IMG/VR virus record: IMGVR_UViG_2671180669_000008
Length of the DNA stretch: 5,142 nt
From: a virus
Taxonomy: Duplodnaviria; Heunggongvirae; Uroviricota; Caudoviricetes
Direction: 5' to 3' (one strand)
Every line of letters begins with the position of its first letter. The stretch's first letter is position 1. Below the pieces are notes generated by a model that did no database searches, was not told the DNA's origin, and saw only the letters and a program-made list of their open reading frames with translations. Position numbers and translations under genes: made by a program. Below are positions 2,235-2,326 of this stretch, in pieces.

Positions 2235-2262
2235 AAAAAAACCACATGGCTATCGGGTGTGG
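2235..2262 (-). terminator. Candidate intrinsic terminator in the ORF6N upstream region
   Basis: Minus strand CCACA-CCCGATAGCCA-TGTGG (5-bp stem, 11-nt loop) followed by TTTTTTT (plus 2235-2241). Confidence 0.4.
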
Positions 2263-2297
2263 ATACCGCTTTCGAGGTGTTTTGAGCACCGCGGGGA

Positions 2298-2326
2298 AAT
2301 GTAAACTGCAAACCTGAAACTGTCAA
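2298..2326 (-). promoter_or_regulatory. Candidate sigma70 promoter (-35 TTGACA 2326-2321, 17-bp spacer, -10 TACATT 2303-2298)
   Basis: Perfect -35 hexamer on the minus strand with a 4/6 -10. Lies between tR' and the 2235-2262 terminator. Pattern only. Confidence 0.3.

Follow-up and report, generated by a model that had tools for sequence, protein, structure and literature searches.

What is the role of a short unit, running from a promoter to a terminator-like hairpin, that lies just ahead of an ORF6N-domain gene in a prophage? The question arises in a stretch of 5,142 nucleotides (nt) from a virus of the class Caudoviricetes (IMG/VR record IMGVR_UViG_2671180669_000008), which is called the window here. 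Coordinates refer to the whole window, and every feature of the cassette described below is on its minus strand. The unit begins with a promoter, P2, continues into a leader RNA and ends with a hairpin and a U-run. An earlier reading made from the letters alone (the sequence-only reading) had suggested either a stable RNA of about 55 nt or a regulated leader. The answer proposed here, with a probability of roughly 0.6, is that P2 and the leader would be the promoter and target-mimic leader of an antisense cassette of the sRNA-Xcc1 type, controlling the ORF6N gene, a gene of the antirepressor type. The leader is read in this way because a homologue of sRNA-Xcc1 (Xcc1 below), located between the leader terminator and the ORF6N gene, has complementary sites in two places, in the leader and at the ribosome-binding site of that gene.

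Xcc1 is a full-length member of its Rfam family; the match covers model positions 1-87 of 87, and the gathering score is 53. Its architecture comprises a long closing stem with two inner hairpins, a junction that is single-stranded, and ACCC as the 3' tail. Three of its segments face the leader (Table 1). The loop of hairpin 2, b', is the reverse complement of a single-stranded 7-mer in the leader, b1, and of a second 7-mer before the ORF6N gene, b2. The junction, a', is complementary to the loop of the leader hairpin, a1, and to a2, which stands beside b2. The leader and the ribosome-binding region therefore each carry a copy of the same bipartite target. The leader has a third complementary segment, c1, which matches c', the 5' strand of the closing stem of Xcc1. 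The equivalent of c1 in EC12 is CGCGCCCG, paired with CGGGCGUG, and co-folding as well as folding of the read-through transcript pairs c1 with c'. With c1:c' added to the a and b pairings, the whole leader is co-linear and antiparallel with Xcc1.

The downstream copy of the target lies directly on the signals for translation. Its b2 element overlaps the Shine-Dalgarno sequence AGGA (2102-2099), the two being fused as UCGAAAG-GA at 2107-2099. The ORF6N gene most likely starts at the AUG at 2091, 7 nt after the Shine-Dalgarno sequence, and EC12 has the same spacing. An AUG at 2097 is only 1 nt past that sequence, and the listed open reading frame of 253 amino acids starts at a GTG at 2289, inside the leader. 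In 16 of 17 loci the start codon follows the end of b2 by 7-11 nt, and a downstream complement of b' of at least 7 nt is found in 18 of 20 specificity classes.

Two scans supplied further cassettes: one of viral contigs, for a 15-nt core of Xcc1, and one of genomes, for the leader hairpin of 15 nt. The genome scan returned mostly chance matches, true cassettes making up 12 of 120. The resulting sample holds 43 cassettes (32 unique) in 20 specificity classes. Their sources are Enterobacterales, Coxiellaceae, Steroidobacter, Vogesella, Robbsia, Ancylobacter, Kiloniellaceae, Ferrovibrionaceae and Desulfovibrionaceae. All 32 Xcc1 loci that were found through the Xcc1 core alone have the leader upstream.

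The 7-mer differs between these loci, and it changes jointly at b1, b' and b2. The b' loop reads CUACUGA in EC12 and CUACUUG in phage TL-2011c; further versions include CUGUAUG, CUUACGA, CUAGUCG, CCAGCGA, UCGUUCG, UCCUGGG and CUCACAG. A perfect complement of b' of at least 7 nt occurs both in the leader and before the downstream gene in 17 of the 20 classes. When the loops were permuted among loci, a mean of 0.94 classes was matched, with a maximum of 6 in 10,000 trials. The leader side was also anchored independently, by defining b1 as the 7 nt that precede a conserved CGG. So defined, b1 and b' pair in 89.3% of cells, compared with 57.1 ± 2.8% in shuffles (0 of 500 reached the observed value), and compensatory changes are seen in all 7 pairs, with slid controls at 29-50%. 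The a element is mostly invariant. In loci L113 and L120 a1 and a' change together, and in L113 a2 changes too.

Predicted energies distinguish own partners from foreign ones. Short-segment duplexes give -17.9 kcal/mol for Xcc1 with its own leader and -10.9 for cross pairs, and -16.4 kcal/mol for Xcc1 with its own ribosome-binding region and -8.8 for cross pairs. Short segments were used because, in RNAduplex runs on long sequences, the conserved a and c segments dominate and the ranking of own against cross pairs is uninformative. In the window, the duplexes with Xcc1 have -17.4 kcal/mol for the leader and -13.7 kcal/mol for the ribosome-binding region. Co-folding of leader and Xcc1 gains -20.8 kcal/mol, compared with -1.7 ± 1.7 for shuffled leaders. 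In the predicted fold of the read-through transcript (2291-2085; -62.5 kcal/mol, z -2.36) the leader pairs with Xcc1 over a1:a', b1:b' and c1:c'.

Table 1. Positions of the P2-leader-Xcc1 cassette and of other features in the window
Feature	Position	Strand	Basis or remark
-35 hexamer of P2, TTGACA	2326-2321	minus	promoter scan
-10 hexamer of P2, TACATT	2303-2298	minus	promoter scan; 17-bp spacer
Predicted leader RNA, about 56 nt	2291-2235	minus	start 2291/2290 from promoter geometry; end = U7
Leader hairpin GGUG / loop CUCAAAA (a1, 2286-2280) / CACC	2290-2276	minus	folds
b1, UCGAAAG, single-stranded 7-mer	2275-2269	minus	complementary to Xcc1 loop b'
c1, CACACCCG	2261-2254	minus	complementary to c'; read from sequence
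Weak terminator-like hairpin CCACA (2262-2258), 11-nt loop, UGUGG (2246-2242), then T7 (2241-2235)	2262-2235	minus	
sRNA-Xcc1 homologue, 84 nt	2212-2129	minus	Rfam RF02221, 77.4 bits, E 1.6e-13
c', 5' closing strand of Xcc1	2209-2202	minus	
TACAAT, within conserved Xcc1 internal loop AAUACAAUACC	2194-2189	minus	
b', CUUUCGA, loop of Xcc1 hairpin 2	2162-2156	minus	
a', GUUUUGAG, single-stranded Xcc1 junction	2153-2146	minus	
Hairpin CCCU / CUCAAAA / GGGG, 3' of Xcc1	2135-2121	minus	read from sequence
Downstream bipartite target: a2 AUCAAAAU (2117-2110) and b2 UCGAAAG (2107-2101)	2117-2099	minus	
ORF6N-domain gene, 187 amino acids	2091-1528	minus	Pfam ORF6N, E 8.8e-21
Q antiterminator gene	2979-2572	minus	Pfam Phage_antitermQ, E 2.7e-52
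First (upstream) module, whole	2567-2346	minus	promoter scan and Rfam
Promoter-like site of first module, TTGACC-18-TATATT	2567-2538	minus	promoter scan
c4-a1b1, overlapping isrK	2544-2492	minus	Rfam, 50.1 bits
isrK homologue	2531-2455	minus	Rfam, 77.5 bits
C4 antisense RNA	2429-2346	minus	Rfam, 71 bits
DnaB-like helicase gene and RusA gene		minus	Pfam
Terminator 3' of ORF6N gene	1452-1431	minus	terminator scan
Four tRNA genes	1338-1028	minus	Met-CAT, Arg-TCT, Thr-TGT, Gly-TCC
Holin-like open reading frame	347-132	minus	

The promoter that the sequence-only reading had described, TTGACA-17-TACATT at 2326-2298, is present. It scores 10 of 12 against the consensus and has hexamers and a spacer of the sigma70 type. 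Promoter-like sites in the window as a whole occur at chance level, with 5 found and 5.5 ± 2.0 in shuffles, and the terminator likewise does not rise above chance within the window. Because of this, comparison with other loci was used to judge the unit, and its significance comes from those loci and not from the window itself. Among 28 unique upstream contexts, which are mostly mutually unalignable, the sigma70-type score has a peak at the position where the -10 hexamer ends 7 nt before the leader hairpin. The mean score at the peak is 7.29 of 12, compared with a background of 3.75 (standard deviation 0.57). A score of at least 9 of 12 is reached in 50% of the contexts and in 0.3% of control windows, which were taken inside the transcribed region, and TTGAC stands at the -35 position in 20 of the 28. 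Over all 28 contexts the distance from promoter to hairpin is 7-9 nt. TL-2011c and Escherichia coli O157:H7 EC4115 have unrelated upstream sequence, yet both carry TTGACA-18-TATATT at the same place. Judged by this conservation of sequence and position, P2 is a real promoter. Its geometry in the 28 contexts places the start of transcription at 2291/2290 and predicts a leader of about 56 nt. The second, weaker promoter that had been proposed around TACAAT does not hold up: the hexamer belongs to the internal loop and consensus of Xcc1 in the Rfam match, and it is conserved because that RNA is.

The -35 hexamer of P2 lies in the loop of a hairpin of its own, AACCUGA / UCAGGUU (2339-2311, minus strand). 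EC12 and L101 have AACAUGA / UCAUGUU, a single compensatory change. The 5' arm of this hairpin overlaps the downstream target of the upstream C4 RNA (GAUUGGAAC, 2344-2336).

Expression of the Xcc1 family has been recorded elsewhere. In uninduced E. coli EDL933 the RNA of an sRNA-Xcc1 locus reaches the level of RNase P RNA and carries few ribosomes (PMC5331693), and in Xanthomonas Xcc1 is seen as an 88-nt RNA on Northern blots (PMC2996969). The published EDL933 coordinate matched no Xcc1 locus in NZ_CP008957, so its expression evidence is not tied to a specific leader. The data are consistent with an active promoter in uninduced cells.

The leader, for which the promoter, the 5' hairpin and the U-run are conserved across loci, has three parts. 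The stem of the first hairpin varies yet stays paired (CAAGUG/CACUUG, GGAG/CUCC), with 4-6 bp across loci, and is followed by the single-stranded 7-mer. The third part generally consists of a hairpin of 4-6 bp, a loop of about 11 nt with CCCG-NNAG, and a U-run of at least 5, which is U4-G-U2 instead in one leader; the run is kept in 23 of 25 unique leaders. Pairs were counted in these named structures, which replaced RNAalifold on a MAFFT alignment of leaders; indels misalign the stems there, and only a trivial 3-bp consensus resulted. In the count, 4 of 5 pairs of the terminator stem show compensatory changes and 87.5% of cells are paired, compared with 32-47% in slid controls of the whole structure. 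The hairpin and T7 described at 2262-2235 are present in the window, and the U-run ends 144 nt before the likely start codon. The sequence-only reading is supported in its core, a unit from promoter to terminator that yields either an RNA of about 55 nt or a leader regulating the ORF6N gene, but it had missed Xcc1. The complementarity of Xcc1 to the leader and to the ribosome-binding site points to a target-mimic leader and not to a stand-alone small RNA or a classical attenuator.

The terminator loop (2257-2247, minus strand) deserves a separate remark. Its CCCG-NNAG motif (C-GNNA-G, tetraloop-like) is conserved across distant taxa, and motif and 5' arm jointly form a complement to the 5' strand of the Xcc1 closing stem, a feature that a simple terminator would not explain. 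The small open reading frames of 30 amino acids (2342-2250) and 76 amino acids (2425-2195) and the extension of the ORF6N gene to the GTG at 2289 were set aside as coding sequence, since they overlap the C4 or Xcc1 RNAs or start upstream of the Shine-Dalgarno/AUG pair at 2102-2089.

These elements can be put together into a mechanism. Transcription from P2 would start at about 2290, and the first 56 nt or so would form the a1-loop hairpin, the single-stranded b1 and the weak terminator with its U7. Transcripts that stop there would become a short leader RNA, while those that read through would carry Xcc1 and the ORF6N message. Through a' and b', Xcc1 would pair with a2-b2 over the ORF6N Shine-Dalgarno sequence and block translation. 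The leader, with a1-b1 and c1, would be a built-in mimic of this target, and the terminated leader RNA, as is considered most likely, would titrate Xcc1. How much decoy is made relative to antisense precursor would then depend on the weak terminator. In late transcription, polymerase that comes from the upstream promoter and is modified by Q would read through both terminators. The roles given here to Xcc1, most likely that of repressing ORF6N translation, and to the terminated leader, that of mimicking its target, are drawn by analogy from the precedents of C4 in P1 and P7, IsrK in Gifsy-1, and seqA and CI in P4. The comparison of loci establishes the anatomy, the conserved place of the promoter and the joint variation of the three sites, whereas the direction of regulation, an action in trans, the processing of Xcc1 and the efficiency of termination are inferred.

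One of the closest known systems is the immI region of phages P1 and P7 (P51 - a1 b1 - c4 - a2 b2 - icd/ant; Citron & Schuster 1990; RF01695, RF03163). There, C4 RNA lies between an upstream target (a1 b1) and a downstream target (a2 b2) and represses ant. The order of elements is the same in the Xcc1 cassette: a promoter, an upstream target, a structured antisense RNA, a target at a ribosome-binding site and an antirepressor-type gene. As in C4 and CI systems, the antisense RNA is flanked by complementary sites on the same strand, the downstream one overlapping the start region of the antirepressor-type gene. The layout described above for Xcc1 is also that of the C4 RNA of P1, and in both systems specificity resides in a short variable sequence that co-varies with the targets. 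Between the C4 copies that were compared it is the junction that varies (GUUCCAA and ACGCCAA), whereas in Xcc1 the loop of hairpin 2 varies and the junction is conserved. Unlike P1 and P7, the Xcc1 cassette has its downstream target directly on the Shine-Dalgarno sequence of the regulated gene, without an icd-like leader reading frame, and its upstream target has a terminator of its own 3' of it.

The Gifsy-1 region antQ - isrK - orf45/STnc1160 - anrP of Salmonella (Hershko-Shalev et al. 2016, PMC4825925) likewise combines a short RNA with a read-through, antirepressor-like mRNA. There, IsrK works both as a short RNA and as read-through mRNA: a promoter-to-terminator unit yields the short IsrK, which acts on the longer anrP mRNA that arises by read-through (PMC4825925). 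Both IsrK and the Xcc1 leader are short RNAs complementary to a downstream structured region. A module of the Gifsy-1 type, with a Q gene, isrK and C4, is itself found directly upstream in the window. Compared with IsrK, the Xcc1 leader is a second, non-homologous unit. It has one hairpin and a single-stranded 7-mer in place of the two target hairpins of IsrK, its partner is Xcc1 and not C4, and no upstream reading frame is involved. IsrK and C4 have been called structural homologues of seqA and CI of P4 (PMC3632133). A titration role has been shown for IsrK in Gifsy-1 and proposed for seqA, and by analogy the Xcc1 leader most likely resembles them. The P4 region seqA - CI RNA (seqB) - seqC and the CA RNA of N15 similarly place a processed antisense RNA between two complementary sites and control downstream genes. 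The outcome in P4 and N15 is premature termination, whereas the downstream site of the Xcc1 cassette overlaps a Shine-Dalgarno sequence and points to translational control; control of termination at the Xcc1 leader is a computed possibility. By function the cassette can be regarded as a system of the C4/CI/IsrK kind, and by Rfam tests it is outside those families.

Several observations weigh against a target-mimic leader. In 3 of the 20 specificity classes one of the matches to b' is missing, and 2 of 25 leaders have no U-run. Rfam searches at E ≤ 1 gave no C4 (RF01695) match at 2212-2129 and no isrK (RF01394) or c4-a1b1 (RF03163) match at 2291-2235. The 57-nt leader RNA folds no better than shuffles (minimum free energy -8, z +0.96). 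The terminator hairpin of the window, with 5 bp and an 11-nt loop, has a free energy of -3.2 kcal/mol, and the terminator scan of the window did not call it. The mean over loci is -4.8 kcal/mol, and the isrK terminator has -7.1. The suggestion that transcription mostly stops at this hairpin is thus not established; since the hairpins are weak throughout the loci, partial termination is the reasonable expectation, and the short RNA could be a minor product. Its start site, its 3' end and the short RNA itself are computed predictions at this locus. The action of Xcc1 in trans and its processing by RNase P are likewise suggested by analogy with C4.

The predicted pairing of leader and Xcc1 in cis also means that a switch acting purely in cis would explain the same co-variation. 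In such a 5' untranslated region, b2 would be the Shine-Dalgarno site, b' the sequence that masks it and b1 the sequence that masks b', all in one transcript and with no trans-acting RNA. A leader paired to Xcc1 would leave the ribosome-binding site free, and a leader that is absent or cleaved would let b' sequester the site. The read-through fold does pair the leader with Xcc1, and the three elements are always linked in cis and in constant order. This switch is nevertheless rather improbable: Xcc1 accumulates as a discrete RNA of about 88 nt, abundant and with low ribosome cover in EDL933; the conserved terminator between b1 and b' would part the partners in many transcripts; and the related C4 RNA acts in trans.

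The leader may instead be an attenuator that is promoted by the antisense RNA. P4 CI RNA and N15 CA RNA cause premature transcription termination. The P4 case is discussed in the IsrK paper (PMC4825925). By the same token, mature Xcc1 would bind the nascent a1/b1, favour the terminator and stop P2 transcription before Xcc1 and the ORF6N gene, and the short RNA would be a by-product of negative feedback; a decoy role can coexist with this. Many leaders contain a competing hairpin, GCGG-NNN-CCGC, that ties up the 5' arm of the terminator, and blocking b1 and 3 further nt raises the computed probability of the terminator stem from 0.46 to 0.88, compared with 0.58 when a control of 10 nt is blocked. 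The leader of the window has no such GCGG/CCGC alternative. Its stem probability rises from 0.30 to 0.87 with b1 and 3 nt blocked, but the control block in the window class also raises it, to 0.79. Equilibrium folding says little about co-transcriptional events, and pairing at c1 would disrupt the terminator instead. An attenuator is judged unlikely, with a real share of the probability left to it, and it and the switch in cis need not exclude each other. Much more improbable is a mere back-up terminator, in which the hairpin and U7 would end transcripts from upstream (from the isrK/C4 promoter or, in O157:H7, from the upstream gene) and the hexamers would be without a function. The element does stand some 50-110 nt past the stop codon of an upstream gene in EC4115 and TL-2011c, and the promoter count of the window equals chance. 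The promoter, however, sits between that stop codon and the terminator, it keeps its distance from the leader hairpin in 28 contexts, some of them without a nearby upstream gene, and the leader co-varies with Xcc1, which is not expected of a simple terminator. A chance neighbourhood of a random promoter-like match and a random weak hairpin with a T-run would fit the 5 sites found against 5.5 and the lack of excess folding energy in the leader, but it is effectively refuted by all the comparative results and is scarcely credible.

In published work, sRNA-Xcc1 of Xanthomonas campestris (RF02221) has been treated as a trans-acting, virulence-associated small RNA with targets predicted genome-wide. 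One paper notes sRNA-Xcc1 upstream of an ORF6N gene in APSE phages, and one preprint places it upstream of symE with an unknown "divergent regulatory mechanism". No description of the leader with its promoter and terminator, or of the matching site at the ribosome-binding site, was found in the searchable literature, the coverage of which is incomplete, so that an earlier description is possible. Rfam at E ≤ 1 assigned no family to the leader (2291-2235), the only match being a spurious one to the small nucleolar RNA sR58 (E 0.57). The cassette is widespread and appears to be undescribed.

The proposal gives a concrete and testable mechanism, together with a target in cis, to sRNA-Xcc1, the function of which is left open in searchable papers and the family of which occurs in phages, integron cassettes and genomic islands of many Proteobacteria. 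It would also mean that there is a second form of the control by RNA known from P1, P4 and Gifsy-1, with no sequence-detectable relation to C4 and with its own promoter, leader and terminator. Antirepressor-type genes stand behind the cassette in Shiga-toxin and other lambdoid prophages (Ant in O157:H7), so the balance of leader and Xcc1 could matter for prophage induction. With its variable 7-mer, the cassette looks like a naturally programmable regulator. A broader picture may be drawn tentatively, at a little below even odds. Leader, Xcc1 and ribosome-binding site would form a modular three-site switch, spread across Proteobacteria, the 7-nt address of which is rewritten in step at all three sites, so that an antirepressor or toxin gene would be under the private control of the prophage, integron cassette or island that carries it. 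Xcc1, so far treated as a trans-acting virulence RNA, would be an immunity RNA that acts locally and the leader its dedicated anti-antisense RNA, and their balance would decide prophage induction or toxin expression.

The genes found downstream of cassettes are of the antirepressor or toxin type: ORF6N, Rha, P22_AR_N, ERF, SymE toxin and Ant. The range suggests that the cassette is a general gate for regulators and toxins of mobile elements. Individual loci illustrate it. A SymE toxin gene stands behind the cassette in L230 (Steroidobacter), and loci L144/L198, L109/L157 and L048/L073 have ERF recombinase (Raoultella, Buttiauxella), P22 antirepressor N-domain and Rha genes downstream. The leader-Xcc1 cassette is not restricted to one protein family.

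Just 3' of Xcc1, a further hairpin (Table 1) shows the loop of the leader hairpin and is a third copy of an a-type site. Its stem changes compensatorily in other loci (GCCAU.../...AUGGC, CUCCUAA.../...UUAGGAG).

The window reads, on its minus strand, as the late-control region of a lambdoid prophage, and the P2-leader unit (2326-2235) sits between C4 and Xcc1. The unit had been described as following a tR' terminator. A terminator is indeed present there, its identity by Rfam being that of the terminator of an IsrK homologue, with C4 antisense RNA after it. The C4, isrK and c4-a1b1 models match this upstream module only. P2-leader-Xcc1 can be regarded as a second antisense cassette of the C4/CI type, with a leader like IsrK or seqA, in tandem 3' of the isrK-C4 module.

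The two modules are separable. When the window was compared by megablast with 5,426 complete E. coli genomes, the isrK-C4 part gave matches that end at 2317-2339. For the part with Xcc1, 152 genomes matched, and in 150 of them the homology starts at 2290 precisely. This border is the first base of the predicted transcript and also of the conserved 5' hairpin. VT2-Sakai has the isrK-C4 module and lacks the Xcc1 cassette. In O157:H7 EC4115 and phage TL-2011c the order is isrK, C4, gene 1 (ORF6N or Rha), leader, Xcc1 and gene 2, the last being annotated Ant in EC4115. Gene 1 is missing in the window and in E. coli EC12, and as a result the two RNA modules abut.

The upstream module offers some observations of its own. 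In EC4115 (L245 453-691) an ORF6N gene lies directly 3' of isrK-C4, and that gene is absent from the window. The window C4 (2429-2336 region) has kept its downstream complementary site, with no adjacent ribosome-binding site. Possible roles are those of a remnant, of a regulator in trans of some other prophage, or of a control on transcription that reads through into P2. The arrangement of a Q-type antiterminator gene, a promoter and isrK (2979-2455) equals antQ-isrK of Salmonella Gifsy-1, where the toxic antiterminator AntQ is indirectly switched on by IsrK (PMC4825925).

Farther downstream, the tRNA cluster lies between the ORF6N gene and the lysis region, an arrangement common to many Stx-type prophages. 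The holin-like reading frame is bracketed by a perfect 40-nt direct repeat, GACAGACCTGTGCTATCGGAAAGAAAAAAGGCCATCAGCA, at 58-97 and 360-399, and the copy at 360-399 belongs to a strong terminator-like hairpin (414-388, minus strand).

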